Of a stretch of 17,850 nt of DNA, positions 1 to 17,618 are shown piece after piece. This stretch comes from a virus: the UHGV virus genome UHGV-0200089, one strand, 5' to 3'. The notes below the pieces were generated by a model. It made no database searches. It was given only the letters and a program-made list of their open reading frames with translations, and had not been told where the DNA came from. The position numbers were made by a program, and so were the translations under genes. How positions within the stretch are numbered: position 1 is the first letter of the stretch; every line of letters starts with the position of its first letter.

Positions 1-1124
1 TCGCCGCTAAAGTGTCCATCGACACCTCTTCTCTGCAGTATGAGAACGATGACCTGATGCGTCCGGACTTCAACAACGATGACTACGCTATTGCTTGCTG
101 CGTAAGCCCGATGATCGTTGGTAAACAAATGCAGTTCTTCGGTGCGCGTGCAAACCTGGCGAAAACCATGCTGTACGCAATCAACGGCGGCGTTGACGAA
201 AAACTGAAAATGCAGGTTGGTCCGAAGTCTGAACCGATCAAAGGCGATGTCCTGAACTATGATGAAGTGATGGAGCGCATGGATCACTTCATGGACTGGC
301 TGGCTAAACAGTACATCACTGCACTGAACATCATCCACTACATGCACGACAAGTACAGCTACGAAGCCTCTCTGATGGCGCTGCACGACCGTGACGTTAT
401 CCGCACCATGGCGTGTGGTATCGCTGGTCTGTCCGTTGCTGCTGACTCCCTGTCTGCAATCAAATATGCGAAAGTTAAACCGATTCGTGACGAAGACGGT
501 CTGGCTATCGACTTCGAAATCGAAGGCGAATACCCGCAGTTTGGTAACAATGATCCGCGTGTAGATGACTTGGCTGTTGACCTGGTAGAACGTTTCATGA
601 AGAAAATTCAGAAACTGCACACCTACCGTGACGCTATCCCGACTCAGTCTGTTCTGACCATCACTTCTAACGTTGTGTATGGTAAGAAAACGGGTAACAC
701 CCCAGACGGTCGTCGTGCTGGCGCGCCGTTCGGACCGGGTGCTAACCCGATGCACGGTCGTGACCAGAAAGGTGCAGTAGCCTCTCTGACTTCCGTTGCT
801 AAACTGCCGTTTGCTTACGCTAAAGATGGTATCTCCTACACCTTCTCTATCGTTCCGAACGCACTGGGTAAAGACGACGAAGTTCGTAAGACCAACCTGG
901 CTGGTCTGATGGATGGTTACTTCCACCACGAAGCATCCATCGAAGGTGGTCAGCACCTGAACGTTAACGTGATGAACCGTGAAATGCTGCTCGACGCGAT
1001 GGAAAACCCGGAAAAATATCCGCAGCTGACCATCCGTGTATCTGGCTACGCAGTACGTTTCAACTCGCTGACTAAAGAACAGCAGCAGGACGTTATTACT
1101 CGTACCTTCACTCAATCTATGTAA
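1..1124 (+). CDS. pflB: Formate C-acetyltransferase (pyruvate formate-lyase), 5'-partial, C-terminal ~370 aa
   Basis: Open frame runs from the window edge to TAA at 1122-1124. The translation contains the active-site pair 'IACCVSPM' and the glycyl-radical motif 'RVSGYAV' near the C-terminus, and matches E. coli PflB as recalled. A hairpin terminator follows. Confidence 0.96.
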
Positions 1125-1166
1125 TTAGATTTGACTGAAATCGTACAGTAAAAAGCGTACAATAAA

Positions 1167-1192
1167 GGCTCCACGAAAGTGGGGCCTTTTTT
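1167..1192 (+). terminator. Rho-independent terminator downstream of pflB
   Basis: Stem GGCTCCAC / GTGGGGCC (one G-U pair) with GAAA loop, followed by TTTTTT. Confidence 0.7.
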
Positions 1193-1317
1193 AGCGCGAG
1201 AGCCTTTTTTGTCAGCTATCTATACTTTAAGGTGACTGCCAAAACAGACTCGACGTAGCCTTCGAGCTGCGCACCAACACGGCCTCAGATGGGCCACATC
1301 TGGAGAAACACCGCAAT

Positions 1318-1330
1318 GTCAGTTATTGGT
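1318..1330. repeat. attL core, direct repeat GTCAGTTATTGGT
   Basis: Identical 13-mer at 16868-16880. Here it is preceded by the native pflA RBS GGAGA and ATG (1316-1318) and followed by phage-type sequence. Confidence 0.8.
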
Positions 1331-1405
1331 GACATTTTTTGACATCTAATTGCATGAAATAAAAGGATTTATTTCTGGTCACGTCCACACATTGACCACA
1401 TCGAC

Positions 1406-1430
1406 AAAAAAAGCCCCTCAACTGAGGGGC
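1406..1430 (-). terminator. Rho-independent terminator downstream of ogr
   Basis: Stem GCCCCTC / GAGGGGC with a short loop; on the minus strand it is followed by a 7-nt T tract (A7 at 1406-1412 on plus). Confidence 0.65.
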
Positions 1431-1443
1431 TTTCTGTTTGTAA

Positions 1444-1662
1444 TTACATCCACATAATTTGCTGCCCTGACGGCAACGGGTGCGGCCTTACGGCGTGGAC
1501 TTCTCCCGGCTTCACGATGTATCTCTGTACCGACTCATAGGTGATGAACGTGGCGCTGCAATTCACGTTCTGACACTGGTGATAACGCTCTTTTGTCGTG
1601 TCAGTGATATAGCGACTTGTACGCGCATGTGCGGCATGCTGGCATAAAGGACAATGAAACAT
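1444..1662 (-). CDS. ogr: Ogr-type zinc-finger late-gene transcription activator (72 aa)
   Basis: Internal ATG at 1662-1660 gives MFHCPLCQHAAHARTSRYITDTTKERYHQCQNVNCSATF..., with CxxC...CxxxxC zinc-finger spacing, matching P2 Ogr as recalled. The 28-aa N-terminal extension in the ORF track is judged spurious. Confidence 0.88.
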   Translation of the reverse strand: MFHCPLCQHAAHARTSRYITDTTKERYHQCQNVNCSATFITYESVQRYIVKPGEVHAVRPHPLPSGQQIMWM

Positions 1663-1742
1663 CGCGAGCACCTCTTCCGGTTTTGTTGATGGTGCCATTT
1701 TAGTTAATTTATCCTTATAAAACAAACAGATAAAATAAAACA

Positions 1743-2906
1743 TCACTCATCATCTTCTGTTTCGTACTCCACATCAGAAAGCCTGACCTCAAGCTCCAAG
1801 GACGTCGTGAAGCCGCTATTATTCAGAAAATGTGTCACCTTAGTGATTGTCCAGTCCTGCTCGTCTATGACGCGCTTAAAGCCTGACACTTTGACCGGCG
1901 TTTCCGTGTAAATATCTGCCCGACCAGTGGCAAGGCTGATGGAGAACTCCGCAACGCCCCGTTGCAGTTTGTCCCACTTCGCCTGAGCGGCGCGCATGGC
2001 CTGCGCTTTCGTGGCATATACCGTGGTCAGGGCAAAAACGTTGTCAGCCTCACCGGCCATGTATTCACCTTCGCGCGCTTCCGGTACTTTTGGCTCTTTC
2101 TTCTGCGTGACCGGTTTCGCTTTCGGGTGCTCCAGTGCGCGCAGGTGTTTCTCTTTCTTTTTGCGTTTCAGTTTTACCTTCTGCTTTTGCGGCTTCGGGT
2201 CTTTGGTGTGTAACCACTTTGCCGTAACGCCGGTATAGGCTCCACGGTCAGCAATCGCAAAATGATGACGGTCGCCGTCGCTGCGGGTGATGGTGACCTG
2301 CGGGATTTTTTTACCGCTGGCCGTCACCCCCTGCCCCGCTTTGAGAAACAACAGTTTTCCCATTTTTACCGACACCTCACCGCCGTTGCGTTCTGCAAGA
2401 CGGGTCAGGAATTTCGCATCAGACTCCTGCGACTGGTCGATGTGCGGGATTTTAATTCCGGCCAGTGACGGAGCGACACTGGCCTCCAGCCTGTTACGGG
2501 TGGCTATCGCCTCAACAATCGCACCGAGCGTGGTGTCATGCCAGGAGCCTTCCCGGCGGGAATTGAGCGTCCCGCGGAAATCTGCACTCCGGGCGCGGAT
2601 GGTGACCACATCCGGTGCGCCCCGGTGTTCAACCTCATCAACGGTAAATTTCCCTTTGCATACCAGGGCAAAACCTTTCCAGCCGATATACACCGTCAGG
2701 ACAGCGCCACGAATCGGTAGCCCGACCTGCCCGTCGGCGTCGTTCAGTTCAATATCAAGCTGGTCAGCCTCAAAGCCCCGGTTATCCGTCAGGGTCATGC
2801 TCATCAGACGGTCGCTGATATTGCCGGTAATATCCCTGCTGTCGAGCATCAGCATGTAATCCGGCGTCAGCGTACTGCCTGCATCAAATGTCAGTGCATC
2901 CAGCAT
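1743..2906 (-). CDS. D: P2 gpD-like tail protein (387 aa)
   Basis: Full-length ORF with near-identity to P2 D as recalled (MLDALTFDAGSTLTPDYMLMLDSRDITGNISDRLMSMTLTDNRGFEADQLDIELND...). Its ATG overlaps the U stop as TAATG. Confidence 0.92.
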   Translation of the reverse strand: MLDALTFDAGSTLTPDYMLMLDSRDITGNISDRLMSMTLTDNRGFEADQLDIELNDADGQVGLPIRGAVLTVYIGWKGFALVCKGKFTVDEVEHRGAPDVVTIRARSADFRGTLNSRREGSWHDTTLGAIVEAIATRNRLEASVAPSLAGIKIPHIDQSQESDAKFLTRLAERNGGEVSVKMGKLLFLKAGQGVTASGKKIPQVTITRSDGDRHHFAIADRGAYTGVTAKWLHTKDPKPQKQKVKLKRKKKEKHLRALEHPKAKPVTQKKEPKVPEAREGEYMAGEADNVFALTTVYATKAQAMRAAQAKWDKLQRGVAEFSISLATGRADIYTETPVKVSGFKRVIDEQDWTITKVTHFLNNSGFTTSLELEVRLSDVEYETEDDE

Positions 2907-3385
2907 TATCCCGCCCCCGTCATACCCGTGAATCTGGTCGCCATACTGCCAGCCTTACCGATAAGCGATTCCGCCTGTTTACCGATATCGCCATAAAGCG
3001 CGGCCAGTGATTCATCAACGCGGGTGAGTGACAGCGTAAAATCAATTTTTCGGGGTGTGCCGTCTGCAAAGAAAATACTCCCTGTTTCATTCACCCTGCT
3101 GATGACATACATGCCGTAAATCATGCCGGTGCCATCCAGCAACGGCCACGCCCGGCCTTCCTCTGCCATCAGCCTGAGCGTGGTCATCGTCAGCTTGCCG
3201 CCGGTCAGTTCGGGATAAAGCACGCCGGCAAGCGTGATGTTTTCCTCACCCACACCGAGAAACTGAAAGGCATCCCGTTTACCGATACGGGAATTTGACG
3301 GCCAGCGATAATCTGATTCACGCTGCATGGTCTGGTGTGGCAGCGTCTGGCGCATAAAAACAAACATACCTAACGCGAGCATCAT
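2906..3385 (-). CDS. U: P2 gpU-like tail protein (159 aa)
   Basis: ORF beginning MMLALGMFVFMRQ..., lying between the T remnant and D as in P2. AGGAGG RBS (complement of 3394-3399) sits upstream of the ATG. Confidence 0.88.
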   Translation of the reverse strand: MMLALGMFVFMRQTLPHQTMQRESDYRWPSNSRIGKRDAFQFLGVGEENITLAGVLYPELTGGKLTMTTLRLMAEEGRAWPLLDGTGMIYGMYVISRVNETGSIFFADGTPRKIDFTLSLTRVDESLAALYGDIGKQAESLIGKAGSMATRFTGMTGAG

Positions 3386-3399
3386 TTTTCGTCACCTCC

Positions 3400-3681
3400 T
3401 TAACCGTCATGCATCATGCTGGCACGAGCGCGCGCACGTTTATCCCGCTCGTATTTTTCGAGCGCATCCTGTAACTGGCGGTCAAGCTGTGTCCCCGGCG
3501 CAGTACCACCCGTCAGGCTGATGTGATATTCGTTTTTACTCTGGTCCACATAAGAGCGGCCAGCCGGTGCCGTGACCGGCTGATAAGCCTGATAGCCTGC
3601 ATAAGAGCTGGTCGCCGGAATATAACCACCGGTGCCATACGTGGCGGCATGAGTTCTGGCGGCGGTCTGGTCAAGTGTGTC
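3400..3681 (-). pseudogene. T: C-terminal remnant of P2 gpT-like tail tape-measure gene (about 93 codons; upper boundary approximate)
   Basis: The frame ends in TAA at 3402-3400 just upstream of the U RBS, in the position T occupies in P2. The protein-like tail is ...YGTGGYIPATSSYAGYQAYQPVTAPAGRSYVDQSKNEYHISLTGG...EKYERDKRARARASMMHDG. Upstream of ~3690 the same frame reads antisense through the P remnant. Confidence 0.5.
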
Positions 3682-3684
3682 TGA

Positions 3685-3996
3685 CTCTTTGTTGATGACC
3701 CCGAGCTTTTCCAGTACACGCCGGAAATGAAAACCGCAATGGTGCTCAAGGCAAAAGACGTTATTCGCCGTGGCTGTCTGGAATATGACGTCAGCGCCAC
3801 CGACATCACCAGCTCGTTTATGGCTATCCGCAAGACCATGACCAGCAGCGGACGCAGCGCCACCTATGAGGCCAGCCGCAGCGAGGAAGCCAGCCACGCC
3901 GACCTCGCCTGGGCGACCATGCACGCTCTGTTAAATGAGCCACTCACCGCCGGTATCAGCACCCCGCTGACATCCACCATTCTGGAGTTTTACTGA
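3685..3996 (+). pseudogene. P: C-terminal remnant of P2 gpP-like terminase large subunit (5' boundary approximate)
   Basis: The frame opens after TGA at 3682-3684 and ends in TGA at 3994-3996, overlapping the Q start as TGATG, which is the P-then-Q arrangement of P2. Only ~100 codons remain, against ~590 for a full-length P. Confidence 0.5.
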
Positions 3997-5030
3997 TGAG
4001 CAAGAAAAAAGGGAAAACACCGCAACCTGCGGCAAAAACAATGACCGCCAGCGCCCCGAAAATGGAGGCATTCACCTTTGGTGATCCGGTGCCGGTACTC
4101 GACCGCCGTGACATTCTGGATTATGTCGAGTGCATCAGTAACGGCAGATGGTATGAGCCACCAGTCAGCTTTACCGGTCTGGCAAAAAGCCTGCGTGCTG
4201 CCGTGCATCACAGCTCACCGATTTACGTCAAACGCAATATTCTGGCCTCGACATTTATCCCGCATCCGTGGCTTTCCCAGCAGGATTTCAGCCGCTTTGT
4301 GCTGGATTTTCTGGTGTTCGGTAATGCGTTTCTGGAAAAGCGTTACAGCCCCACCGGTAAGGTCATCAGACTGGAAACCTCACCGGCAAAATATACCCGC
4401 CGTGGCGTGGAGGAGGATGTTTACTGGTGGGTGCCGTCCTTCAACGAGCCGACAGCCTTCGCGCCCGGTTCCGTGTTTCACCTGCTGGAGCCCGATATTA
4501 ATCAGGAGCTGTACGGCCTGCCGGAATATCTCAGCGCCCTTAACTCTGCCTGGCTGAATGAGTCGGCCACGCTGTTCCGCCGCAAGTATTACGAAAACGG
4601 CGCACATGCCGGATACATCATGTACGTTACCGATGCCGTGCAGGATCGCAACGATATCGAAATGCTTCGCGAAAACATGGTTAAGTCGAAAGGCCGCAAT
4701 AACTTTAAAAATCTGTTTCTCTATGCCCCACAGGGGAAAGCCGACGGCATTAAAATTATCCCGCTCAGTGAAGTGGCAACGAAGGACGATTTTTTTAATA
4801 TCAAAAAAGCCAGCGCCGCTGACCTGCTGGACGCGCATCGCATCCCCTTTCAGTTGATGGGGGGCAAGCCGGAGAACGTCGGGTCGCTGGGTGATATTGA
4901 GAAAGTGGCAAAGGTCTTTGTCCGCAATGAGCTTATCCCGTTACAGGACAGGATCCGCGAGATAAACGGCTGGCTCGGTCAGGAGGTCATCCGATTTAAA
5001 AACTACTCACTGGACACTGACAACGGCTGA
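3996..5030 (+). CDS. Q: P2 gpQ-like capsid portal protein (344 aa)
   Basis: Near-identity to P2 Q as recalled (MSKKKGKTPQPAAKTMTAS...AFTFGDPVPVLDRRDILDYVECISNGRWYEPPVSFTGLAKSLRAAVHHSSPIYVKRN...). GGAG RBS at 3984-3987; followed by a terminator and cos. Confidence 0.92.
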   Translation: MSKKKGKTPQPAAKTMTASAPKMEAFTFGDPVPVLDRRDILDYVECISNGRWYEPPVSFTGLAKSLRAAVHHSSPIYVKRNILASTFIPHPWLSQQDFSRFVLDFLVFGNAFLEKRYSPTGKVIRLETSPAKYTRRGVEEDVYWWVPSFNEPTAFAPGSVFHLLEPDINQELYGLPEYLSALNSAWLNESATLFRRKYYENGAHAGYIMYVTDAVQDRNDIEMLRENMVKSKGRNNFKNLFLYAPQGKADGIKIIPLSEVATKDDFFNIKKASAADLLDAHRIPFQLMGGKPENVGSLGDIEKVAKVFVRNELIPLQDRIREINGWLGQEVIRFKNYSLDTDNG

Positions 5031-5033
5031 ACA

Positions 5034-5055
5034 TCGCCGCCTGCGGGCGGCTTTT
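5034..5055 (+). terminator. Rho-independent terminator after Q
   Basis: GCCGCC / GGCGGC 6-bp GC stem with TGCG loop, followed by CTTTTTT. Confidence 0.7.
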
Positions 5056-5199
5056 TTACACCCCGTCATCACCCCCTCACACGCTCACCACCGCACAAAA
5101 CACCCCGCAGACACACCAACGCCTCAACGGGCAGACTAAGCGCCGTCACGACGCGCTCAGACGCTGAAAAAATAAAATCCGCACCACCGCCAGCGCGCA

Positions 5200-5218
5200 G
5201 TGCTTTCCCCGCCTCGCC
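5200..5218. other. cos: P2-type cos site (19-nt cohesive-end sequence)
   Basis: GTGCTTTCCCCGCCTCGCC is the reverse complement of GGCGAGGCGGGGAAAGCAC, the P2 cohesive end as recalled. It lies in a C-rich tract directly after Q, where cos sits in P2. Confidence 0.65.
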
Positions 5219-5459
5219 CGCCCGCTTCATGGGGAGGTTTTAATGCAAACGCATCAGGAAGGGCAGACCTAGTCACATGTAGAATACGATAGCAATAAAA
5301 AAGTCTAATTAGAATGCAAATTGATGCAACTCTATGCCCTCCAAGAACTCCAAACCTGAAAGATTTATGTAAAACATAGTGTTCGTTTCACCAAAATACA
5401 TATAAACTACATTAAAATAGAAATTTGTCTCACCTATAAGCCATTTAGACAACAGATTA

Positions 5460-6623
5460 ATGAGGTTTGTATCACAAATGACCACAAACGAGATACTTTC
5501 GCAGCTTATCAGTCTTGGACTCAAAGGGGATAAAGTTGCTTTTGTTCGGCAGGCTTCGAAACTCGCGCGTTCCTATGATTCTATGGGGCTGCCTGAGCTT
5601 GCTTCAGCCATTAGAGGTAGTATTCAAGATAAAAACACGTTTAACTTGCAGAAAGTATCACGCAGTACATCACCTATTTTTGAACGTCTTGATACATTAC
5701 CTGTAGATAAAGAAACTAAATTTGATTTAGCAGACGTAACTCAACCGTCTTCTGAAATTCAACTCCCATTGTTGAAAGATAGCACTCTGAAAAAAATTAA
5801 AGAATTTTTGACTTTCACTGAACGAGCTAAAGAATTAAAGGATGCCGGTCTTGGCGTGACATCCTCTATGATTTTATATGGGCCACCAGGTTGTGGTAAA
5901 ACCTTGACATCAAAATATATTGCATCCTGTCTAAATTTACCGCTTCTTACTGCAAGATGTGACTCCTTAGTCTCATCATATCTGGGGTCTACTTCTAAAA
6001 ATATCAGGCAGCTATTTGAGTATGCAAGTAAAGCACCATGTGTTTTATTTCTAGATGAACTAGATTCTCTAGCAAAGGCTAGAGATGATCAGCATGAGTT
6101 AGGTGAACTGAAGAGGGTGGTGGTTTCTTTATTGCAAAATATTGACAATCTACCTGAAGAAACAATATTGATTGCTGCAAGTAATCATGAAAATCTTCTA
6201 GATAGCGCAGTTTGGAGGCGCTTTGAGTATAGAATATCTATTGGATTGCCTGATTTTGAAGTCAGAAAACAACTATTTGAACAATATTCAAACATAAAAG
6301 CTACATATGACGATTTTGTTGATGACCTTGCGGAAATATCATCAGGGCTAAACTGCTCATTTATAGAACAATGCTGCTTAAGATCTGAGCGACATGCTCT
6401 GGTTTACAATAATAAACAAATCGATACCCGATTTTTAGTCGAGGCTATCTTAGAAGCGAAGGGAGTTACATTTGATGAAGAAGATAATTTACTTATAAAG
6501 ATTGTGACCACTCTCAGAGAATACAATCCCAAAAGATTTACAATACGAAAGATAGCAAAAATACTAGGGCTTTCAAATGCTAAAGTGTCAAGGCTAACTA
6601 AGAACTATAGAGAGATATTATGA
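5460..6623 (+). CDS. AAA+ ATPase with C-terminal HTH-like segment (387 aa); cargo gene 1 of an IetAS-like pair
   Basis: Walker A 'GPPGCGKT', Walker B 'VLFLDELD', and a sensor/arginine region 'SNHENLLDSAVWRRFEYRISIGLPD'. The C-terminal 'FTIRKIAKILGLSNAKVSRLTKNY' looks like a helix-turn-helix. The stop overlaps the next gene's start as ATGA. Start could instead be ATG 5478, which has a GAGG ~12 nt upstream. Confidence 0.85.
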   Translation: MRFVSQMTTNEILSQLISLGLKGDKVAFVRQASKLARSYDSMGLPELASAIRGSIQDKNTFNLQKVSRSTSPIFERLDTLPVDKETKFDLADVTQPSSEIQLPLLKDSTLKKIKEFLTFTERAKELKDAGLGVTSSMILYGPPGCGKTLTSKYIASCLNLPLLTARCDSLVSSYLGSTSKNIRQLFEYASKAPCVLFLDELDSLAKARDDQHELGELKRVVVSLLQNIDNLPEETILIAASNHENLLDSAVWRRFEYRISIGLPDFEVRKQLFEQYSNIKATYDDFVDDLAEISSGLNCSFIEQCCLRSERHALVYNNKQIDTRFLVEAILEAKGVTFDEEDNLLIKIVTTLREYNPKRFTIRKIAKILGLSNAKVSRLTKNYREIL

Positions 6624-8884
6624 GTAACAAAGAAAGACCAATAAAAATAATTGAGGCGACACCTCAAGATTTTACTGAAAAAACATATAATTTCGGAAAG
6701 AAACAACCTATCCGAACAGTAACAACTAGTCTAAAAAATAGACTCAAACAAGAAGTCGATGACGTTAAAAATTTTTTCCAGAGCTCATTTAAAAAATGGC
6801 CCAATATACCGGCGGTGGCTAGAGTTACTCTTCATGAAAAAGCTCTTGCTAAGTCACATCGCCCATCAAGCCTATTAGGTGATAATACATGTCCCGTAAT
6901 AGGCAGTGATAATTTTGGAGAATTACTTATAAGTGTTACTGAAAAAGGGTTAGCACAACTTCGCAAAAAAATTGAAAATAGCACTAATTCTCATAATGGG
7001 ACAGTACATATTGCTGTAATTGAAAAGATCGAACCTTTTAGTCTTAACCATGATGTTATAGATAAAAATAAATCAGATAGTTTTCTTCTGAAACTCTTTG
7101 ACCATAAAGATAGAACAACTAACCGCAGTATCGACAAAGAATTAATGGAATTTGCAGATGAACTAGGAATACAAAAACCCAAAAAGTATGATATCAGTTC
7201 AGATTTGAGTATATATGAAGTAAAAGGGAATGATAACATCGCCCAACTGGCAAGTTTTATTGGCATACGAAAATTAGAACCTATGCCAACATTTGGTCTT
7301 ACTCATACAGTATCGCAATATATTCCTGCTGAAACTCTAGACCTAGATGATTTTCCCTTACCTCAAGAGGATAAACATTATCCACTACTCGGAATTATAG
7401 ATAGCGGAGTCGATCCCAATAACAACATACTTAGGCCATGGATTTGGGATAGTTTAGATTTAGTAAAAGGAGAACACGACTATTCTCATGGGAACATGGT
7501 TGCAAGTTTAGCAATTAATGGAAGATGGTTGAATAACTATGCTGGTTTTCCTCAATGCCAAGCTGAAATTGTTGATGTTGCAGCCTTTCCCAAAGATGGT
7601 ACGCTCAAATTGCCACAATTAATGAAAGCTATCCGAGAGGCTGTGACCACCTATCCAGAAGTACGTGTATGGAATCTGTCATTAGGTTGTCAATCCCCAT
7701 GTTCTGAAGACAGCTTCTCTGAATTGGGGCATTTTTTAAATGCACTTCATGATGAGCATGATTGTCTTTTCGTCGTAGCATCCGGCAACTACATTTATGA
7801 TCCTCAACGAACCTGGCCTCCTCAAGAATTAGGTGGGCATGACAGAATATCAGCCCCCGCAGATTCTGTTCGTTCATTAACTGTTGGCTCAGTTGCCCAT
7901 TTAGAATCGTCTGACTCTGTGGTCAAAAGATTTGAACCTTCATCTTTTTCTAGAAGAGGTCCCGGCCCAGCCTTTATACCCAAACCAGAGATAAATCACT
8001 TTGGAGGTAATTGTGACAGTAAATTAAACTGTGAACATACCGGAATCATAGCTATTGGCGAGGACAATGCTCTTTGCGAAAGTATTGGCACAAGTTTATC
8101 AGCACCGTTAATCTCAAGTTTAGCGGCATCACTGTGGCATGAACTAGATGTTAATGGTTCTATTTCACCATCGCCTGAACGTATCAAGGCACTATTAATT
8201 CATTCTGCGTTAAAAAACTCACCAGCCAAAACGGAGCATTATGCGTTTAATTATCAAGGATTTGGACGCCCAAGCGATCATATAAATGATATTATTGGTT
8301 GCAATAAAAATGAGATTACATTTCTATTTGAAATAGATACCCGAGAAGGTATTGAATTCAGTAGAACGCCATTTGTAATACCACAGTCATTACGTACTGA
8401 GGATGGAAAATTCACAGGTGAAATTATTATGACACTCGTTTATTCTCCACCGCTTGATTATGACTACCCATCTGAATATTGCCGTTCTAATGTGGATGTG
8501 TCATTCGGGACTTACACTTATGATCCAGTTAACGCTAAATGGATACATAGCGGAAAAATTCCACAAATAAAAGAAAAGAGTGAATTATTTGAAAAGGTAC
8601 TGATAGAAAATGGCTTCAAATGGTCTCCAGTCAAAGTTTATAGAAAACAATTTCCGCAAGGTATAAATGGGGAGCAATGGAGACTTAAACTTGATGTTCA
8701 GAGACGAGCAGAGCAAGAGCCTCTATCTTCACCTCAACGTGCTGTATTGGCTATTACGTTAAGATCTCTTGCCAATTCTACTACAGTCTACAACGAAGCC
8801 GAGGTTGAAATAAATAATCTTGGTTGGAAAGAAACTGATATTGTTGTTCGTGAACAACCAAAAATCAGGATTCGTCAAAAATAA
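6620..8884 (+). CDS. Subtilisin-like (S8) serine peptidase with N- and C-terminal extra domains (754 aa); cargo gene 2
   Basis: S8 catalytic motifs in canonical order: Asp 'LLGIIDSGVD', His 'DYSHGNMVASLA', oxyanion Asn 'FVVASGNY', Ser 'GTSLSAPLISS'. AT-rich coding sequence; translationally coupled to the ATPase. Confidence 0.85.
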   Translation: MSNKERPIKIIEATPQDFTEKTYNFGKKQPIRTVTTSLKNRLKQEVDDVKNFFQSSFKKWPNIPAVARVTLHEKALAKSHRPSSLLGDNTCPVIGSDNFGELLISVTEKGLAQLRKKIENSTNSHNGTVHIAVIEKIEPFSLNHDVIDKNKSDSFLLKLFDHKDRTTNRSIDKELMEFADELGIQKPKKYDISSDLSIYEVKGNDNIAQLASFIGIRKLEPMPTFGLTHTVSQYIPAETLDLDDFPLPQEDKHYPLLGIIDSGVDPNNNILRPWIWDSLDLVKGEHDYSHGNMVASLAINGRWLNNYAGFPQCQAEIVDVAAFPKDGTLKLPQLMKAIREAVTTYPEVRVWNLSLGCQSPCSEDSFSELGHFLNALHDEHDCLFVVASGNYIYDPQRTWPPQELGGHDRISAPADSVRSLTVGSVAHLESSDSVVKRFEPSSFSRRGPGPAFIPKPEINHFGGNCDSKLNCEHTGIIAIGEDNALCESIGTSLSAPLISSLAASLWHELDVNGSISPSPERIKALLIHSALKNSPAKTEHYAFNYQGFGRPSDHINDIIGCNKNEITFLFEIDTREGIEFSRTPFVIPQSLRTEDGKFTGEIIMTLVYSPPLDYDYPSEYCRSNVDVSFGTYTYDPVNAKWIHSGKIPQIKEKSELFEKVLIENGFKWSPVKVYRKQFPQGINGEQWRLKLDVQRRAEQEPLSSPQRAVLAITLRSLANSTTVYNEAEVEINNLGWKETDIVVREQPKIRIRQK

Positions 8885-8889
8885 GCATT

Positions 8890-8914
8890 ATGGTCACCTT
8901 TTATAGGTGACCAT
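8890..8914. terminator. Perfect 9-bp palindromic hairpin between the two convergent cargo operons
   Basis: ATGGTCACC ttttata GGTGACCAT, located between the S8 stop (8884) and the membrane-protein stop (8918). U-tracts are weak on both sides, so termination efficiency is uncertain. Confidence 0.5.
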
Positions 8915-8917
8915 TTA

Positions 8918-9679
8918 CTACACCTTATTATTTTCAACTATTTTATGAATATCCATATCAAACCAAGAAACTTGCGAAATTTCTTTTAGTGGAAAGATGA
9001 TACTAGTATCAGCATCCTCAAGCTCTCTATATTCATTCACCAAGATTACTTTCAATGAATCCTTATCTCTATACCCAGAGATAATAGGATAGATTGAAAC
9101 ATACTGGTTAGGTCCTTCTTTCTCGTTAGGCTCACCTAATGCGTTAACAATTCCTACATATGTCTTTTTATTTTGCAACGTAATAAGTATTGAACGTCTA
9201 TCAACTAACGAATCAAAAAATATTTCATCCATTGGATTATCATTAATAAGCTCTTGCCTCATCCTTAGCATGACAAGATTCTCATAATCAATATTGGCAG
9301 CCTTTACCCCTTGGATATAATTTATAATTTTAGCTCTATATATAACCAAATATCTAGCACCGACACTCCATATCCAAGCCAAAAATATCGTTCCACATGA
9401 AAGTAAAATCATCCATCCTATGATTCTTTCAGTACCATTGTCACTAAGTTTGAGATCTAATTGTTCCCGAACCATCGTGACAGGATGGAAGCTCGGACAT
9501 ATCCATTTTATTAAGTAAGCTATAATCAATGTCCATATAAAACACCACAGACCAAAGGCGGCTGACTTCATATATAACAACTGCCCATCATAACGGTGTA
9601 ATCTATAGAAATGATAAGGATGAGTGGTTAATACAATATAACCACTCACAAGTAATGGAATAATTAATAAAGCAAACAT
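8918..9679 (-). CDS. Uncharacterised membrane protein (253 aa), three predicted N-terminal TM helices plus a ~140-aa soluble C-terminal domain; cargo gene
   Basis: Hydrophobic segments FALLIIPLLVSGYIVLTT, AAFGLWCFIWTLIIAYLIKWI and IIGWMILLSCGTIFLAWIWSV. The ATG lies 2 nt after the upstream gene's TAA. AT-rich. No family recognised. Confidence 0.7.
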   Translation of the reverse strand: MFALLIIPLLVSGYIVLTTHPYHFYRLHRYDGQLLYMKSAAFGLWCFIWTLIIAYLIKWICPSFHPVTMVREQLDLKLSDNGTERIIGWMILLSCGTIFLAWIWSVGARYLVIYRAKIINYIQGVKAANIDYENLVMLRMRQELINDNPMDEIFFDSLVDRRSILITLQNKKTYVGIVNALGEPNEKEGPNQYVSIYPIISGYRDKDSLKVILVNEYRELEDADTSIIFPLKEISQVSWFDMDIHKIVENNKV

Positions 9680-9681
9680 TA

Positions 9682-9918
9682 TTAATTCCCTTTAGCCATT
9701 TTTTCTTCTTGCTTTACCTGCTCAGAAACTATTTTTCTTGCTTTAATTTTCATCAATTTTACTGTATCTGAGCTTGCCAAGTCTTCTTTAGACGTGATAA
9801 TCGCGCCTCGACCTACCACCTCAACAGTGTTTGTTCCAGATGCTTCAAGCCTCCTCGCCAGTTCTCTTTCCTTTTCAATAGCAGCTTTACCTATAATACG
9901 TTCAAATATATTCATCAT
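9682..9918 (-). CDS. Uncharacterised small charged protein (78 aa), first gene of the minus-strand cargo operon
   Basis: GGAGG RBS 4 nt upstream of the ATG (complement of 9916-9918). Lys/Glu-rich, predicted helical. Tightly coupled to the downstream membrane-protein gene. Confidence 0.6.
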   Translation of the reverse strand: MMNIFERIIGKAAIEKERELARRLEASGTNTVEVVGRGAIITSKEDLASSDTVKLMKIKARKIVSEQVKQEEKMAKGN

Positions 9919-10009
9919 TTAACCTCCACTTGATTGATGCCAAGATAGTAATCACCTCCTCACAATATCTTACCAACCTAACAACTAACAGAACACTGTG
10001 TATAAGTCC

Positions 10010-10037
10010 AGTATAGTTTAATTAATAAATTAGGCAA
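10010..10037 (-). promoter_or_regulatory. Candidate sigma70 promoter for the minus-strand cargo operon
   Basis: On the minus strand: TTGCCT, 16-nt spacer, TATACT, about 90 nt upstream of the 9918 start. Sequence-only prediction. Confidence 0.3.
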
Positions 10038-10226
10038 ATCTATCAAAATGGTATTTTGTTAAAAATTCAGCTAACTCTGAGGTTGGTAAAACAGTCCACC
10101 AGATGTATCGCTAAAGCACTTAGAAACCACTATAACCATCCTAAGTGTACCAGTCAGTCTGTTTGTCTAATCGCATCACTATGCTCGTTATTCTATCCCC
10201 CGCCAATCCTGAGCTGGCTGCGTTCT

Positions 10227-10433
10227 CTATCGTCTGCGTGGTGGCGGTGCAGCGCTGGGCTGACCGATATAGTTAAGCCATACGTAATTATCCCGGACTA
10301 TTTCGGCACACCCGACCAGCTCATCGGGCGTCAGATTTTCGTTGACCATAATCTGCTGTAGACGGTGAACAATGGCCATCAGCTTGATATTTTTAGTTTT
10401 ATGCTGCGGTATCTCGCCTGGTATTCTGTGCAT
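10227..10433 (-). CDS. Hypothetical small protein (68 aa) downstream of the ASCH-like gene
   Basis: ATG at 10433-10431 overlaps the upstream TAA as TAATG; the translation ...ENLTPDELVGCAEIVRDNYVWLNYIGQ... looks protein-like. It competes with an overlapping plus-strand ORF at 10056-10361. Confidence 0.3.
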   Translation of the reverse strand: MHRIPGEIPQHKTKNIKLMAIVHRLQQIMVNENLTPDELVGCAEIVRDNYVWLNYIGQPSAAPPPRRR

Positions 10434-10888
10434 TATCCAAGCCACCCGTTTTGCTGTGCACGCTCCACCTGTTCATCTGAATAGTTCCATATCCCATCCG
10501 CACCAACCACTGCCCCGCCAGACATCCCCGTCTCTGGTTCATACACAACAGCAAGGCCGAGCTGATGCATAATTTCATGATTAATTCTGAATACCAGACC
10601 ACGCTCACTAAGTTCTTTCCAGTTCACAAACTCATATGCGCCTGTATTAAGCAGCTCAATACTTAGCAAGACATAATCTTCCAGCCAGTCTGACAAGTCA
10701 GTAACATCTGTTATCCGGGCTTCAACCTTTCGCCCCGTATACACACCCTGCACCCATTCATGCAAAATCAACGTGTCCCCGCGCTCATAATTACGGTCAT
10801 TTTTCCGAAACTCTGCGCGTTTCTTTCCTTCCAGCACAAGGTCAAAATATTTTGCGTGCAGCTTTACCTCGTGAATTTTTGCCATCAT
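10433..10888 (-). CDS. ASCH/PUA-like domain protein (151 aa) in the P2 'orf91' position
   Basis: From the first ATG (10888-10886), which overlaps the gene A stop as ATGA: MMAKIHEVKLHAKYFDLVLEGKKRAEFRKNDRNYERGDTLILHEW... resembles the ASCH/DUF3850 fold signature. The C-terminal region contains 'INHEIMHQLG' (an HExxH). The track's longer GTG-initiated version is rejected. Confidence 0.72.
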   Translation of the reverse strand: MMAKIHEVKLHAKYFDLVLEGKKRAEFRKNDRNYERGDTLILHEWVQGVYTGRKVEARITDVTDLSDWLEDYVLLSIELLNTGAYEFVNWKELSERGLVFRINHEIMHQLGLAVVYEPETGMSGGAVVGADGIWNYSDEQVERAQQNGWLG

Positions 10889-13170
10889 TTCCACTCCATT
10901 ACTGTTGAGAATCCCGGCCACTCATCAGCGACCGGATACGTGAATTTTTTCCCGTCATAATTTACGGTCGCGCCACGCGCCAGCGCCTCAAGCTCCCATC
11001 GCTGCGGCCTGATACCGTTCTGAGCAAGGTCAACGCGGATACGGGTAATTTGCATTCTTTCCGACCGGGTCAGTCTGGCCGATGGTGCAATTTCATGTGG
11101 TTTTAACGGGCTTCCGTTTCTTTGCTGACGGTTTGGCGTTCTCAGGTCGTGTTTTAATGCACCCCTGAGCGCCCTCACGACCTCCGGTTCATTCCATTCA
11201 ATAACACCGTCATCAACCAGATTAAGCACTGCTGCGGCGTGCTCAGAAGGTGTGGGAGCCGGTAACGAAGTATCACCACCGGTGAGCTTTCCACAGTTAT
11301 TGACAGGACTCCGAGGCGCGGCGATGCCGCTTTTTAAAGTCAAAGGCTCAACGACCGGAACTTTCGGCACAATGCGCCAGTCCGTCGTTCTGGTGATATG
11401 AATATGACGCGCGCCGAGATGCGGCGCGTAAATGCCGACCACTCTCTCGACTTCTTCCTCGTATTCGTTAACGTCATCCGACGGGCTACGGGCGACCCTG
11501 ACAGTCTGACAATCGCGCGGGACATTTGCCCCGCCCTGCGCGCTGATATACAACGCAAAATCGCCACTGTCTGCGGCGGCGCGTGCAGCCTCCACGCGTT
11601 CGTCAAATTCATCAGCAATGCTGACGCCGCGAGGCAATTTACGTAGCTCACGGTAAGCTCCCATTGTCGGCAGGCCAACCGTTTTAAATTGCGGGATGCG
11701 CCACGTTGACGCCCATGCGGTAACAGCCGCCGCAGTATCTTTCAGCGGTCTGCCGGTATCGTTATCGAGCTGACCATCCAGTGCATAGCCGTCGATATTT
11801 TTTGAAATGTATTTCGCGATATATCCCGCAGCACCGCCCCGGTTAAGGTGTTTTGCCTGAAAACGGTTTCGCGCGGCTCCTCTTTCGTCGCCATCCTCTT
11901 TGAGCGCATAGCGGCGCATGATTTCGATAATCTGGTTACGCTGGCGTGGATTACAAAAAAGCATCATATGCCAGTGCGGCGTTCCGTCGTGGTGTGGCTC
12001 GACGACTCGCAAACCGTAGACCTGTAAATCATTATCCTTGAATGCCGTGCGCATCAGGCTCCAGATACGGCAGAGATAACGCTGCGCATCCTTTGGATTA
12101 AATGCCTCATCATTCCAGCCGTGATTAAGCTGGACGGTTTTATTTTCGCCTTTTCCAACCTGACGTGTCGGGTGATACTTTGACGGCGCGGTCAGCGTGA
12201 TAAACATCCCCACATCACCCTCTGAGGCGGCGTAACGCTCAATACCGGCAATGGTGTTCATCAGCTCCATCCGGCGAATTTCAGGATTAGAAATACTGCC
12301 CATCACCTTACTGATAAGGTCGATGCGCTCGCCGGTTTCCCTGTTTTCAAGGTCACACGATTTAAGAAATTCCAGATTTGCCTGGCGGCGCGCACGCACA
12401 TCACGAATGGCATGTTTACTGGCATAAGGTGAACGGTCTTTATTGACCTCCCCGACAGCTATCAGTAACGCCTCATGCCAGCGCATACGCTGGCCTTTAA
12501 GCTGATGAGTCCACCACTCATCGTTAAACAGACGGGCAATGGCAGAATATGCCTGCCTCGTGGTCATCTGCCCTTTACGGTATTTGTTCCAGTAGAGAGG
12601 GGAAATATTGAAAGCACGTGCAGCGCCAGCAACATGACCATAGAGGTGAGCCTGCGCCTCATCCGTAAACAGCGATTCTTTTTCGCCATGTGCATCCACC
12701 CAGGCATCGCTGAGTTCCTCATACATCATGAAAAGCTGCGATGAGATACGGGCAGCAAACTTTTTCAGCTCCTTGTCATTCATTCCCGGCAGGCGCGCAT
12801 AGTGGTCACGCTCTGCCAGAAACAGTAACGACGCGTCGGTGTTCATTTCATGGCGCTGATTCACACGCTCAATGCGCGGCCATAAACGACGCTGAAAAGT
12901 GGATGTGAGGAAATAAAACCCGTGCACCGGGCTTTTATTGCGCCGGATGTAGTCATAGCGTGAAGTAAACAGCGAGCGCAAAAAGTAAGGCAGGCGGTTA
13001 ATCGTGGATAAAACACCTTGCACCTGACGCATCTCGTCACGTGTAAGAGGTCTTTCGCGCCCGACAGCCTCGCGTGGCGCGTTCCATGCATAAGCACCGG
13101 TAAACGCCTTACCGGTGCCTGCGGCAAATGCTGACGGAGGGACAAAACGCCCGGAGGCTTTAACGGCCAT
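10885..13170 (-). CDS. A: P2 gpA-like rolling-circle replication initiation endonuclease (761 aa)
   Basis: From ATG 13170-13168 the protein begins MAVKASGRFVPPSAFAAGTGK... and carries the tyrosine motif 'YIAKYISKNIDGY'. Length and sequence match P2 A as recalled. The track's start at 13212 is a TTG extension. Confidence 0.92.
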   Translation of the reverse strand: MAVKASGRFVPPSAFAAGTGKAFTGAYAWNAPREAVGRERPLTRDEMRQVQGVLSTINRLPYFLRSLFTSRYDYIRRNKSPVHGFYFLTSTFQRRLWPRIERVNQRHEMNTDASLLFLAERDHYARLPGMNDKELKKFAARISSQLFMMYEELSDAWVDAHGEKESLFTDEAQAHLYGHVAGAARAFNISPLYWNKYRKGQMTTRQAYSAIARLFNDEWWTHQLKGQRMRWHEALLIAVGEVNKDRSPYASKHAIRDVRARRQANLEFLKSCDLENRETGERIDLISKVMGSISNPEIRRMELMNTIAGIERYAASEGDVGMFITLTAPSKYHPTRQVGKGENKTVQLNHGWNDEAFNPKDAQRYLCRIWSLMRTAFKDNDLQVYGLRVVEPHHDGTPHWHMMLFCNPRQRNQIIEIMRRYALKEDGDERGAARNRFQAKHLNRGGAAGYIAKYISKNIDGYALDGQLDNDTGRPLKDTAAAVTAWASTWRIPQFKTVGLPTMGAYRELRKLPRGVSIADEFDERVEAARAAADSGDFALYISAQGGANVPRDCQTVRVARSPSDDVNEYEEEVERVVGIYAPHLGARHIHITRTTDWRIVPKVPVVEPLTLKSGIAAPRSPVNNCGKLTGGDTSLPAPTPSEHAAAVLNLVDDGVIEWNEPEVVRALRGALKHDLRTPNRQQRNGSPLKPHEIAPSARLTRSERMQITRIRVDLAQNGIRPQRWELEALARGATVNYDGKKFTYPVADEWPGFSTVMEWK

Positions 13171-13435
13171 ATGAGCCAAAAGCCTCAGAACAACGCTTGC
13201 TGAGTTGCTCAACCTGCGCGTTTAAATCAGCAAAAGACTTTGCGCTTCCGGTCAGAATATCGTGATGCATCAGGCCGGAAACGAGCTGGCTTAATTTCGG
13301 GTAATAACCAACCACCGCCAGCCATTCCTGACCGGCGTTTTTACCGCTTTCCGCTCTCTTTTTCTCGTGGAGAATAAACTGAAAGCTGTCACTGGTAACG
13401 ACATAACGTTCGCCAATTTCGATACGAATACTCAT
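13160..13435 (-). CDS. Small early-operon protein (91 aa), P2 orf83 position
   Basis: ATG overlaps the upstream stop as ATGA; ends 8 nt before the gene A start. Assigned by synteny with P2. Confidence 0.7.
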   Translation of the reverse strand: MSIRIEIGERYVVTSDSFQFILHEKKRAESGKNAGQEWLAVVGYYPKLSQLVSGLMHHDILTGSAKSFADLNAQVEQLSKRCSEAFGSYGR

Positions 13436-13656
13436 GCCATTCTCCGGTAATGCTTGTTTTTTGCTTCAAAGACTGACTGGCAGGAAACACAACGCGTGGC
13501 TGACGGATAAGCTGCACGACGGGCAGCAGGTATTGGCGCGTCACACTCTTCGCAAACCAGCGCAGAAACACCGCAATGTTTTACCCTTGCCGCGTTAATC
13601 TGGCGCTCCAGTAATTCAGCCTGTTGTTCCTGAATAAAATCTATGTTGTCCGGCAT
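13432..13656 (-). CDS. TraR/DksA-type C4 zinc-finger protein (74 aa), P2 orf82 position
   Basis: 'CEECDAPIPAARRAAYPSATRCVSCQ' gives CxxC-(17)-CxxC spacing typical of the TraR/DksA zinc finger. TAATG coupling to the upstream gene. Confidence 0.75.
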   Translation of the reverse strand: MPDNIDFIQEQQAELLERQINAARVKHCGVSALVCEECDAPIPAARRAAYPSATRCVSCQSVFEAKNKHYRRMA

Positions 13657-13958
13657 TACCAGCTCCTTTTGTCGTTCAGCTTCTTAAATTCATCAGCGCA
13701 ATAGCTGGCGATTTCTGTCGTTAATTTTGTCAGTTCATCCACGGATGAAATTTGCTTATGAAATACAGCGCGTTTAACAAGTAAATTGACCACATCAGAC
13801 AGGAGGTTTAATTCATTCTGATAAATCGCGATAACAGATTCAGTTATGTCGCGTTTTTCTTTATCAAGACAAAGTTGAATAAGAGACAAATCGCCATTTT
13901 TCATAACGGCGATTTTTAAGGCGTTATTCAGTAATACAACTGAATGAGAACAGGACAT
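13656..13958 (-). CDS. Small early-operon protein (100 aa), P2 orf81 position
   Basis: ATG at 13958-13956 overlaps the upstream stop as TGATG. The track's TTG start at 13961 is one codon longer. Confidence 0.65.
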   Translation of the reverse strand: MSCSHSVVLLNNALKIAVMKNGDLSLIQLCLDKEKRDITESVIAIYQNELNLLSDVVNLLVKRAVFHKQISSVDELTKLTTEIASYCADEFKKLNDKRSW

Positions 13959-14182
13959 CAAAGCACCTCCCCGCGAGACAATCCGATATTGTGAAATTTT
14001 TCCGACTCCTGACTGAGCAGCTCGACTATCTCCACGCGGGATAACTCCGCCTTTGTGATATGGCGAATCATGGCGTCAAGATGAGAAGAAAAGCGCGTCG
14101 CAGCGTCGGCCTGTGCTTCGGTTCTGGCCTGTTGCAGCAGTAATGCGTATTTACCGCACTGATTTTCAGAAACTGTATGCAT
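13958..14182 (-). CDS. Small early-operon protein (74 aa), P2 orf80 position
   Basis: ATG at 14182-14180 with GGAG upstream; position between B and the orf81-like gene matches P2 synteny. Confidence 0.65.
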
Positions 14183-14245
14183 GACTTTCTCCAGGCAAAA
14201 AGAAGCCCCGCACGATTAAGTGCGTTAAAAACTCTGGTTAATTAC

Positions 14246-14746
14246 TTAATGCAGATATTGCTCTGGTTTTACCGACGTCAGAATTGTCGGTGCATACTCA
14301 AACAGGCTGAATAATTCACGTAATGCACGGAATAAAGCATCACGCCAGTAACATGACTCTTCATTAATTCGCCAGTATGGCTGGTTGAATTCTTTTTCAG
14401 TCAATCCGGCATGCATAAATAAAGTACGACGCTGACTGACTGTTAAAAAACTAATATATGCATACTCACTTGCGCCAACCTGACGGCGTTTTGAGAATGC
14501 CCCACGCAATTCATCAATTGCACAAACCAGCCGTTCACGTTCGACGTCGTTCATTTCTTCAAAACGCATCGTTGCGTGACGCTGTTTTAACTGCGCATGA
14601 AAGCAAACCGTTAACCGTTCGCGCTCCATCATCTGATTATAATAATCACATGTATCCTGCCAGCGAGGGACGGCCAGATGCTTACCAATTATCCGGCGCA
14701 TAGTTGCTGGCTGTTTTTCGACGAGATTGAGCGTCATCACTGTCAT
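14246..14746 (-). CDS. B: P2 gpB-like replication protein (166 aa; helicase-loader function as described for P2 B)
   Basis: MTVMTLNLVEKQPATMRRIIGKHLAVPRWQDTCDYYNQMMERERLTVCFHAQLKQRH... is near-identical to P2 B as recalled. Confidence 0.9.
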   Translation of the reverse strand: MTVMTLNLVEKQPATMRRIIGKHLAVPRWQDTCDYYNQMMERERLTVCFHAQLKQRHATMRFEEMNDVERERLVCAIDELRGAFSKRRQVGASEYAYISFLTVSQRRTLFMHAGLTEKEFNQPYWRINEESCYWRDALFRALRELFSLFEYAPTILTSVKPEQYLH

Positions 14747-14913
14747 TTCCAGAACCTCCGGCTTTTCAGAAAGGTCAGAGCCTTTTTTAACGGACTCTGT
14801 TTTTTGGTGCGGATAATGATTCCCTTGCGACCCTTCCCGTGGGTGATGGTGAAGTCAATCGCCCTGGGGCTTTCGTTACGCAATAACTGAGCAATACAAC
14901 GAGGCTCGTTCAT
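14743..14913 (-). CDS. Small basic protein between cox and B (P2 orf78 position); start uncertain
   Basis: The frame ends in TGA overlapping the B ATG as ATGA. The preferred start is ATG 14913-14911, which follows the cox stop and has a GGTGG RBS 5 nt upstream. In-frame ATGs at 14940, 14979 and 15000 would overlap cox. Confidence 0.5.
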   Translation of the reverse strand: MNEPRCIAQLLRNESPRAIDFTITHGKGRKGIIIRTKKQSPLKKALTFLKSRRFWK

Positions 14914-14923
14914 CCTTTCCACC

Positions 14924-15295
14924 TTAAGCCGCACGGCCATGTCTTGATTTGCTGTAACTAATGCGATTTTTCCAGTCATGCCATTCTGTCGGAGCTTCAT
15001 CAACCAGTTGGGCTGCGTACTTGTCCCACTCACGGCGATTAATCCATAATTCAGCTTTCCCTCTTGGTTTTAATGGGTCTGTCATGTAGAAGGCTGGCAG
15101 CTTTCCTGCTTTAGCCATTTCAGCCACCGCGCGTGGTGTCTTACCGATGTAAAGAGCAAAACCTTCTTTCGACAGCAAATCAGATGGGCGCTCTGAAATC
15201 TGAATGCTTTTACGTTTGGCTTCATTTTCGAAACTTGCCTCATCGCTAGTTGGACAAGAAATTTCTACATTTGTCGTCACTTTGCTATCCTCCAT
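14924..15295 (-). CDS. cox: Cox-like protein (123 aa) of the P2-type lysogeny switch
   Basis: Divergent from C and first gene of the cox-B-A early operon. The central HTH-like segment 'FALYIGKTPRAVAEMAKAGKLPAFYMTDP' is Cox/AlpA-like. The sequence differs clearly from P2 Cox as recalled. Confidence 0.65.
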   Translation of the reverse strand: MEDSKVTTNVEISCPTSDEASFENEAKRKSIQISERPSDLLSKEGFALYIGKTPRAVAEMAKAGKLPAFYMTDPLKPRGKAELWINRREWDKYAAQLVDEAPTEWHDWKNRISYSKSRHGRAA

Positions 15296-15388
15296 AAGAT
15301 TTGCGATTCACCAACTGGAGCCATCTAGAGCCTTTTTGAGTGAATCACAAATTGCCAAGTAGCAATATAATTGGAGATTAGCAAAATT
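15296..15388. promoter_or_regulatory. Immunity switch region between divergent cox and C (expected to hold the early and repressor promoters and operators)
   Basis: 93-bp AT-rich spacer between divergent starts. Contains the inverted repeat GATTCAC (15303-15309) / GTGAATC (15336-15342) and a TATAAT at 15366-15371. The assignment is by analogy with P2. Confidence 0.45.
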
Positions 15389-15688: not shown

Positions 15689-15781
15689 CGATTTATTCAG
15701 CATATGTGTGTAGTAAATGTACGAAAGAAAATTGCATTAATTTTCAAGTAGTAGAAGTAAACAGCGTCATCGGAGGGCTTT

Positions 15782-16777: not shown

Positions 16778-16808
16778 ACCAGAGTTAACTAGAGCCAATT
16801 GAAGCGAT

Positions 16809-17606: not shown

Positions 17607-17618
17607 TTTCCCCGTAAA

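Follow-up and report, generated by a model that had tools for sequence, protein, structure and literature searches.

The window, i.e., the whole stretch of 17,850 nucleotides of the virus genome UHGV-0200089 analysed here, holds a P2-like prophage of E. coli which, judging from its sequence, has very probably been made defective by a single recent illegitimate deletion of 18.2 kb that left a genuine P2-type cos site intact. The element carries attachment-site repeats together with a cognate integrase and has lost the genes for virion production, which are the marks of a defective (cryptic) P2-like prophage. On present evidence it counts as a further defective P2-like prophage, in which cos happens to fall outside the deleted segment. 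A more original and more useful lead than the retention of cos is the recurrence of the right-hand deletion endpoint within gene P.

A P2-like prophage in the first codons of pflA

The window extends from the 3' part of pflB (12-1124) to pflA, which ends at 17606, and the prophage lies between the two. Its boundaries are marked by a 13-bp direct repeat, GTCAGTTATTGGT, present at 1318-1330 (the ogr-side junction) and at 16868-16880 (the int-side junction, within the 5' end of pflA). The two copies are the att cores and are spaced by 15,550 bp, in agreement with the size of about 15.5 kb given by a first-pass annotation of this DNA. Joining the int-side and ogr-side flanks rebuilds the attP region of the isolated phage 11W, the int arm being identical at 111/111 positions and the other showing a few SNPs, and joining the outer flanks rebuilds the wild-type start of pflA, ATGTCAGTTATTGGTCGCATTCAC. 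Because both attP and the pflA start are recovered in this way, the prophage can be placed in the first codons of pflA, to which it gives a new 5' end, and the parts required for excision are present, as had been claimed. The native start of pflA (MSVIGR...) is replaced by a phage-encoded 5' end (16809-16880), resulting in an ORF of 265 aa, and the displaced original ATG (1315-1317) persists with the core at 1315-1330. This arrangement recurs in DCE7, E24377A and 98-3133, where it is annotated as pflA.

The gene inventory begins on the ogr side with an intact ogr for the late-gene activator (1444-1662, minus strand, 72 aa, without internal stops; ogrK is annotated at the equivalent place in DCE7), followed by two intact tail genes, D (1743-2906, minus strand, 387 aa), which is without its late promoter, and U (2906-3385, minus strand, 159 aa). 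Next to them lie a 318-nt 3' fragment of the tape-measure gene T (3400-3717, minus strand), identified by its collinearity with the DCE7 prophage, and a 282-nt 3' fragment of the terminase large-subunit gene P (3715-3996, plus strand), which comprises the last 93 codons and gives PHROG matches to the terminase large subunit. The portal gene Q (3996-5030, plus strand, 344 aa) is intact, its product being 99.1% identical to P2 gpQ. The deletion has given rise to two chimeric ORFs here. One (3727-3996, plus strand) encodes an 89-aa C-terminal fragment of the large terminase from its own ATG directly upstream of Q; the other (3400-3924, minus strand, 174 aa) fuses the C-terminus of T to antisense P sequence. 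PHROGs contains families of comparable short terminase fragments.

The early region lies to the right of the cargo genes. It opens with a 68-aa ORF and an Orf91-like protein with DUF3850/ASCH and DUF7415 domains (together 10227-10885, minus strand). The Orf91 homologue itself (10433-10885, minus strand) has 150 aa versus 109 aa in P2 and matches P2 Orf91 over the first 74 residues only, its C-terminal part being DUF7415. Gene A, for the rolling-circle replication endonuclease (10885-13170, minus strand, 761 aa), is 98.4% identical to P2 A and contains the origin at 11291-11330 (minus strand), which is identical at 40/40 positions to the P2 sequence surrounding the annotated nick, the nick itself lying near 11311. 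It is followed by intact homologues of orf83, orf82, orf81 and orf80 (13160-14182, minus strand), 93-99% identical to the P2 proteins, by B (14246-14746, minus strand, 166 aa, 98.8% identical to P2 B), and by a small orf78-like ORF (14743-14922, minus strand) that belongs to phrog_273 and has Orf78 annotated at the equivalent position in phage 11W. Then come cox (14924-15295, minus strand, 123 aa; Pfam Phage_Cox, 3e-29), which is 35% identical to P2 Cox and of another specificity class, the C immunity repressor gene (15389-15688, plus strand, 99 aa), 50.5% identical to P2 C, and int, for a tyrosine integrase of 331 aa with Pfam Int_N and Phage_integrase domains (15782-16777, plus strand). The low identity of C and Cox to their P2 counterparts implies that the immunity class is other than that of P2. 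The arm B-cox-C-int-att is 99.2% identical, over its full length, to that of the isolated phages D8, 11W, 12W, P24E6b and pro483.

The first-pass annotation had described a capsid-less remnant with intact int, cox, C, B and A. This holds in all respects: the five genes are full-length and free of internal stops, the near-identity of A, B and the origin to those of P2 provides the parts for replication, and the element lacks capsid genes, terminase genes (except for the P 3' fragment), lysis genes and most tail genes.

The interval between cos and the early region is occupied by cargo. Two adjacent plus-strand genes encode an AAA ATPase (5478-6623; PADLOC IetA, 9e-132; Pfam AAA) and an S8 peptidase (6620-8884; PADLOC IetS, 1.1e-273; Pfam Peptidase_S8), and by these profile matches 5478-8884 is a predicted IetA/IetS pair of the IetAS anti-phage system. 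The IetAS cargo is absent from isolated phage records and present in several E. coli prophages. Two further ORFs of 253 aa and 78 aa (8918-9918, minus strand) match only PHROGs families of unknown function and have no Pfam or PADLOC match; being co-oriented and adjoining IetAS, they may constitute another accessory or defence module.

The cos site and its flanks

Of the 19-mer GTGCTTTCCCCGCCTCGCC the window has a single copy, at 5200-5218 of the plus strand, and no match to it appeared in 200 dinucleotide-preserving shuffles of the window even when 3 mismatches were tolerated. It had been put forward as the reverse complement of the P2 cohesive end, and this is exact: the cohesive-end sequence, GGCGAGGCGGGGAAAGCAC, read on the minus strand of the window, is identical (19/19) to bases 1-19 of P2 (NC_001895), annotated as cosL, and also to bases 1-19 of P4 (NC_001609), and the cos of phage 186 differs from it at 2 positions.

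The comparison with the published P2 cos and its flanks, which the first-pass annotation had proposed as a check, was made by rebuilding the circular cos junctions of P2, P4 and 186 and then aligning them with the window. Alignments with these three and with four isolated phages delimit a conserved block of about 56 bp at 5193-5248 that is common to P2 and P4. The window is identical to P2 at 54/56 positions of this block and has no mismatch in the core. The two differences are a T at 5230, which is found in the isolated phages 9W, PhiR44_1 and vB_YpM_22, and an A at 5235, which is found in the isolated, propagated phage vB_YpM_22 and breaks one pair of the CCGCCC/GGGCGG inverted repeat adjoining cos. 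Similarity to all P2-like phages ends at about 5247-5254 of the window, where the cargo hotspot next to cos ordinarily begins on its left side (Rousset et al., PMC9122126). Several phage records start exactly at the base matching 5217 or 5218 of the window (three such matches), as expected for genomes deposited from the cohesive end.

The surroundings are also those of a P2 cos. The site had been said to sit just past Q, and Q does stop 169 nt upstream of it, versus 167 nt in P2. A tQ-like intrinsic terminator, a GC hairpin with a T run, can be read at 5036-5057 (plus strand), in the same place as the annotated tQ of P2, so that cos lies between the portal gene with its terminator and the cargo hotspot upstream of A. 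By its sequence and position, 5200-5218 is a genuine, intact P2-type (Peduovirus) cos, which a P2-type gpM/gpP terminase would be expected to cleave, leaving 5' overhangs of 19 nt, and use for packaging.

A recent deletion of 18.2 kb

A full-length relative of the element occupies the same pflA locus in E. coli DCE7 (NZ_CP090611.1; L010). In a BLAST comparison, the window falls into two blocks collinear with it, 1-3717 and 3715-17648; the left block ends at L010 position 5628, inside T (5311-7758), and the right one begins at codon 498 of P. The window thus lacks 18.19 kb from the middle of T to this codon, and the BLAST blocks and junction sequences place the deletion junction at 3715-3717, where a TAC microhomology joins T to P. 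The segment lost comprises most of T, E+E', FI, FII, the tail fibre, baseplate, R, S and lysis genes, as well as X, L, M (small terminase), N, O and most of P. Q, cos, the defence cargo and the entire early region are all to the right of the right-hand endpoint and were spared.

From 3715 to 17648 the window is 99.8% identical to the DCE7 prophage, and there are 0 mismatches from 4629 to 14451, a stretch of 9.8 kb that spans cos, the cargo and A. This identity indicates that the deletion is recent. The survival of cos can therefore be accounted for by its position outside the deleted interval and by the recency of the event, not by demonstrable selection. No copy of the window's junction was found among 5,426 complete E. 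coli genomes, whose best matches all begin at the junction, nor in IMG/VR, GTDB representative genomes or JGI metagenomes; being unique in every collection searched, it shows no sign of spread.

A deletion hot spot in gene P

The junctions in the window, in 98-3133 and in EC3 have different left partners, namely T, the U-T intergenic region and gene I, respectively, and share the same right-hand base, the T of the sequence CGC/TACACGCCGGAAATG in P (the slash marks the endpoint). The shared endpoint lies at 3715-3718 of the window, which corresponds to L010 23818-23821, codon 498 of P, CGC/TACACGCCGG. Further junctions were sought as the hot-spot sequence of P preceded by any base other than C, and four more types were found: L026, with the sheath gene as the left partner; L040, which is deleted internally in P and still has its capsid genes; L048, with a divergent tail-fibre region; and L051, with a baseplate gene region at about L010 14876. 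The 98-3133 type is present in two more copies (L035 and L052), one of them 2.4% diverged and with different cargo. In total, seven independent junction types have one right endpoint: those of the window, 98-3133, EC3/AB104, L026, L040, L048 and L051. Wherever the left partner could be mapped, the microhomology is T, TA, TAC or TACA. The same junction search at two other positions in P returned none. Taken together, these sequence comparisons argue for a nucleotide-precise deletion hot spot in P at CGC/TACACGCC, codon 498.

With its position 1.5 kb left of cos, the hot spot provides a mutational, not a selective, reason for remnants to keep Q, cos and cargo, and it would explain why many P2 remnants retain Q, cos and the defence hotspot. 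It also points to a site-specific break or recombination activity acting on P2-like prophages. Several candidates for such an activity were considered. A homing endonuclease or intein in P was rejected since, in a tblastn of the C-terminal part of P against 489 phage records, the alignments were in a single piece and of normal length, with one exception, a two-piece match also of normal length. The HNH gene of ETEC prophages was rejected as well, since it belongs to the hotspot cargo and does not interrupt P. An invertase (cix/gix-like) site was dropped, with only about 3/12 matches by eye to the half-site consensus, and, as to a gpA pseudo-origin, the hot spot has no convincing similarity to the nick region of ori. 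There are no Chi sites in the window or in the DCE7 prophage, and the hot-spot sequence has a folding energy like that of its shuffles (z = -0.2) and no notable inverted repeat.

Could a helper phage mobilise the element?

By sequence, all the cis and trans parts are in place: att sites, Int, Cox, ori, A, B and cos. From the biology of P2 and P4 we infer how these intact parts could bring about excision, replication, cleavage and transfer. When repression by C lapses, Cox and Int would excise a circle of 15.55 kb, and A, by nicking ori, would with B replicate it. If any P2-type phage resided in the same cell or superinfected it, its gpM/gpP terminase could use the circle as a substrate, would cut it at 5200-5218 and would package it as a monomer or a dimer. 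The element has also kept ogr, which the first-pass annotation had not mentioned, and through it a remnant released from repression could, as P4 delta does, activate in trans the late genes of a P2-like helper resident in the cell. Helper-driven mobilisation is mechanistically plausible, with no novelty of concept, and without a helper the element would simply be a non-lytic, domesticated IetAS carrier.

The first-pass annotation had worried that a monomer of about 15.5 kb falls well below the headful tolerance of P2. The size is right, and the objection is weaker than it seemed: the P2/P4 terminase works not by headfuls but on covalently closed circles, its preferred substrate, which it cuts at one cos of 55 bp (PMC2231350). 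Plasmids of 5-10 kb with the P4 cos are packaged, in monomeric form as it appears (PMC2231350). With a P2 delta-cos lysogen, a small cos plasmid was transduced in P2-size heads at about 2e9 transducing units/ml; substrates of P2 or P4 genome size are reported to be packaged most efficiently (PMC9942202). In P4 sid mutants, P2-size heads are filled with multimers (bioRxiv 10.64898/2026.03.30.715334), and a dimer of the element, at 31.1 kb, would be within the 28.9-34.8 kb of the Peduovirus records matched by the window. Potential helpers abound: the P-Q region is intact in 1,595/5,426 complete E. coli genomes, in agreement with the figure of "almost 30%" in PMC3936717.

The main obstacle to mobilisation is regulatory, i.e., derepression in the helper-infected cell. 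P2-type prophages are not SOS-inducible (PMC2669165), and their phage release is spontaneous only and Cox-dependent (PMC3936717). The repressor of the element is P2-type, with no LexA box found, and no tum- or epsilon-like antirepressor was recognised among its ORFs. P2 gpA is said, after work by Lindahl in 1970, to act in cis. With a P2-type non-SOS repressor, no recognised antirepressor and a cis-acting gpA, a heteroimmune helper would contribute terminase and virions and would not by itself excise or replicate the remnant. The proposal of a mobilisable remnant is partly supported: it stands as far as the true cos and the excision and replication parts are concerned. In view of the identity to the DCE7 prophage around cos, the intactness of the site reflects recency and not selection. 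If the element is mobilisable, a helper phage would have been turned into its own satellite by a single deletion, and a route would exist for horizontal spread of IetAS without lytic cost to the carrier.

Comparison with known systems

The element is like P2 (NC_001895) in the 19-nt end, the 54/56 block, the order Q/tQ-cos-hotspot and the 98-100% identity of Q, A, B and ori. It differs in the absence of 18.2 kb, in its C (50% identical) and Cox (35%), in the class of Int and in the location of att in pflA. The DCE7 prophage, at the same locus, is full length, and the element lacks its 18.2 kb. With P4 and the P2/P4 cosmids, the element has in common the cos core, the absence of capsid and lysis genes, and, near cos, defence cargo, along with its own integrase and replication; it also has an activator of the delta family (its ogr) and would likewise need P2 terminase and virions. 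Unlike P4, it has no sid, psu, epsilon or alpha primase, and hence no capsid downsizing and no helper derepression; it would replicate by the P2 A/B rolling circle, its 15.55 kb exceed the 11.6-kb small-head genome of P4, and it arose by deletion of a helper-type phage, not as a distinct lineage. All ORFs of the element could be assigned to P2 homologues or to cargo. Apart from the delta homologue ogr, they include none of the genes that form the core of P4-like satellites (sid, psu, delta, epsilon, the primase-helicase gene alpha, alpA) and none of the PICI/cos-PICI genes (helper-inducible master repressor, pri-rep, terS, rpp, cpm). PICIs have dedicated helper-sensing repressors and often packaging redirection, whereas the element has P2 C/cox and A/B instead. 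With these defining genes absent from its inventory, the element is best classified as a defective prophage, potentially helper-dependent, and not as a P4-like satellite or a PICI. Defective transducing phages of the lambda dgal type and cos-type PICIs are likewise cos-bearing elements devoid of morphogenetic genes; they are packaged only with the terminase and virions of a helper, and the phage family is another one.

Excision, replication and encapsidation of such remnants already have an experimental precedent in Sp13 of E. coli O157:H7 Sakai. This capsid-less P2-like prophage, the nearest precedent by experiment, forms circles and replicates, and its DNA was obtained in DNase-resistant form (Asadulghani et al. 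2009, PMC2669165); it gave zero transductants (Table 2 of the same paper). By its description, Sp13 resembles the element in lacking head, packaging, tail and lysis genes and in keeping those for integration, regulation and replication. It differs in having no portal gene and in having a P4 epsilon-like gene, which may explain its response to mitomycin (PMC2669165); the element has Q and no epsilon-like gene. Defective P2 elements that keep near-identical defence genes have recently been catalogued (PMC13586616). Two other records were considered and rejected: ON470613.1, a 14.8-kb "phage" record, is a partial assembly with structural genes and not a packaged remnant, and O157:H7 MB41-1, examined as a source of an Sp13-like element, has a full-length prophage at the locus.

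Other remnants and alternative explanations

Capsid-less P2 remnants of similar layout are present at pflA in 98-3133 and E24377A, at yegQ in EC3 and AB104, whose loci are identical, and at fieF in W13-16, where the remnant is about 10 kb and ogr is fused directly to the P fragment. The exact 19-mer cos is kept in all of them, in a sample for which the presence of the P-Q region was required and which is thus biased toward cos-retaining remnants. The same U/'P junction in E. coli 98-3133 (L011) and in the metagenome contig OGPO01007986.1 (L052) is accompanied by different cargo and by 2.4% divergence in 'P-Q-cos, which leaves two readings: a repeat of the deletion with both endpoints the same, or an exchange of cargo within an old remnant lineage.

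That the deletion is an artefact of assembly or collapse, the true locus holding a full-length prophage, is hardly credible. The uniqueness of the junction to the window is what one would expect of such an artefact, but the junction is clean, with a 3-nt microhomology and no repeat of a length that could collapse an assembly, and the right endpoint is shared by six other junction types from assemblies made independently, closed genomes among them, from which it follows that such deletions are real biology. It is also quite unlikely that the element is an immobile island because its cos is non-functional in context, owing to the substitution in the inverted repeat or to the replacement of distal packaging sequences by IetAS. 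The A at 5235 does disrupt one base pair of the repeat beside cos, the sequence to the right of 5250 is unrelated to P2, and packaging efficiency is said to vary with substrate size (PMC9942202). However, the A variant occurs in the propagated phage vB_YpM_22, every P2-like phage diverges at the same point, cos and the surrounding 9.8 kb are identical to those of the full-length DCE7 prophage, and P4, which has only the block of about 56 bp in common with P2, is nevertheless packaged by it (PMC9122126).

Another reading, which we regard as very unlikely, is that the element belongs to an evolved, helper-dependent lineage of reduced P2, functionally a satellite, in which ogr, Q, cos, the early region and att have been kept by selection for transfer. 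It would account for several independent remnants with the layout ogr ... 'P-Q-cos-cargo-A-B-cox-C-int at three att sites (pflA, yegQ and fieF) and for the occurrence of the 98-3133-type junction in two diverged backgrounds, and ogr, like P4 delta, could turn on the late genes of a helper in trans (PMC7552001). The layout is more simply explained, however, by a mutational hot spot that fixes the right endpoint 1.5 kb to the left of cos, and one of the hot-spot deletions (L040) retains the capsid genes. The EC3 remnant has decayed further, with A frameshifted and int truncated, 98-3133 and E24377A contain IS elements, the junction of the window is a singleton undiverged from its full-length relative, no genes for size redirection, antirepression or interference were found in the element, and the sample of remnants, by requiring P-Q, is biased toward those with cos.

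A single recent deletion in an otherwise ordinary prophage thus remains the preferred explanation of the element. It is unlikely, and we offer it as speculation, that remnants of the type ogr-('P)-Q-cos-defence cargo-A/B-cox-C-int-att form a recurrent class which arises from the hot spot in P and acts as helper-dependent satellites. Were this the case, the element of the window and smaller ones such as the W13-16 remnant of about 10 kb would excise and replicate upon spontaneous derepression, their Ogr would activate the late genes of a resident heteroimmune P2-like prophage, and the remnants would be the only cos-bearing circles available for packaging, so that the defence cargo would spread.

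The remnant in E. coli W13-16 (NZ_CP080235.1; L015, at about 8800-18196) is a minimal P2 derivative of about 10 kb, near P4 in size. Its ogr runs directly into the final 177 nt of P; then come an intact Q, the exact cos, a retron-type reverse transcriptase as cargo, A, B, cox and C. A remnant of another kind, at the fieF site of E. coli ETEC4067 (NZ_CP122685.1; L043), has T fused to the holin gene; it has lost tail and lysis genes and still has its head genes, the two terminase genes, Q and, as hotspot cargo, a gene for an HNH protein.
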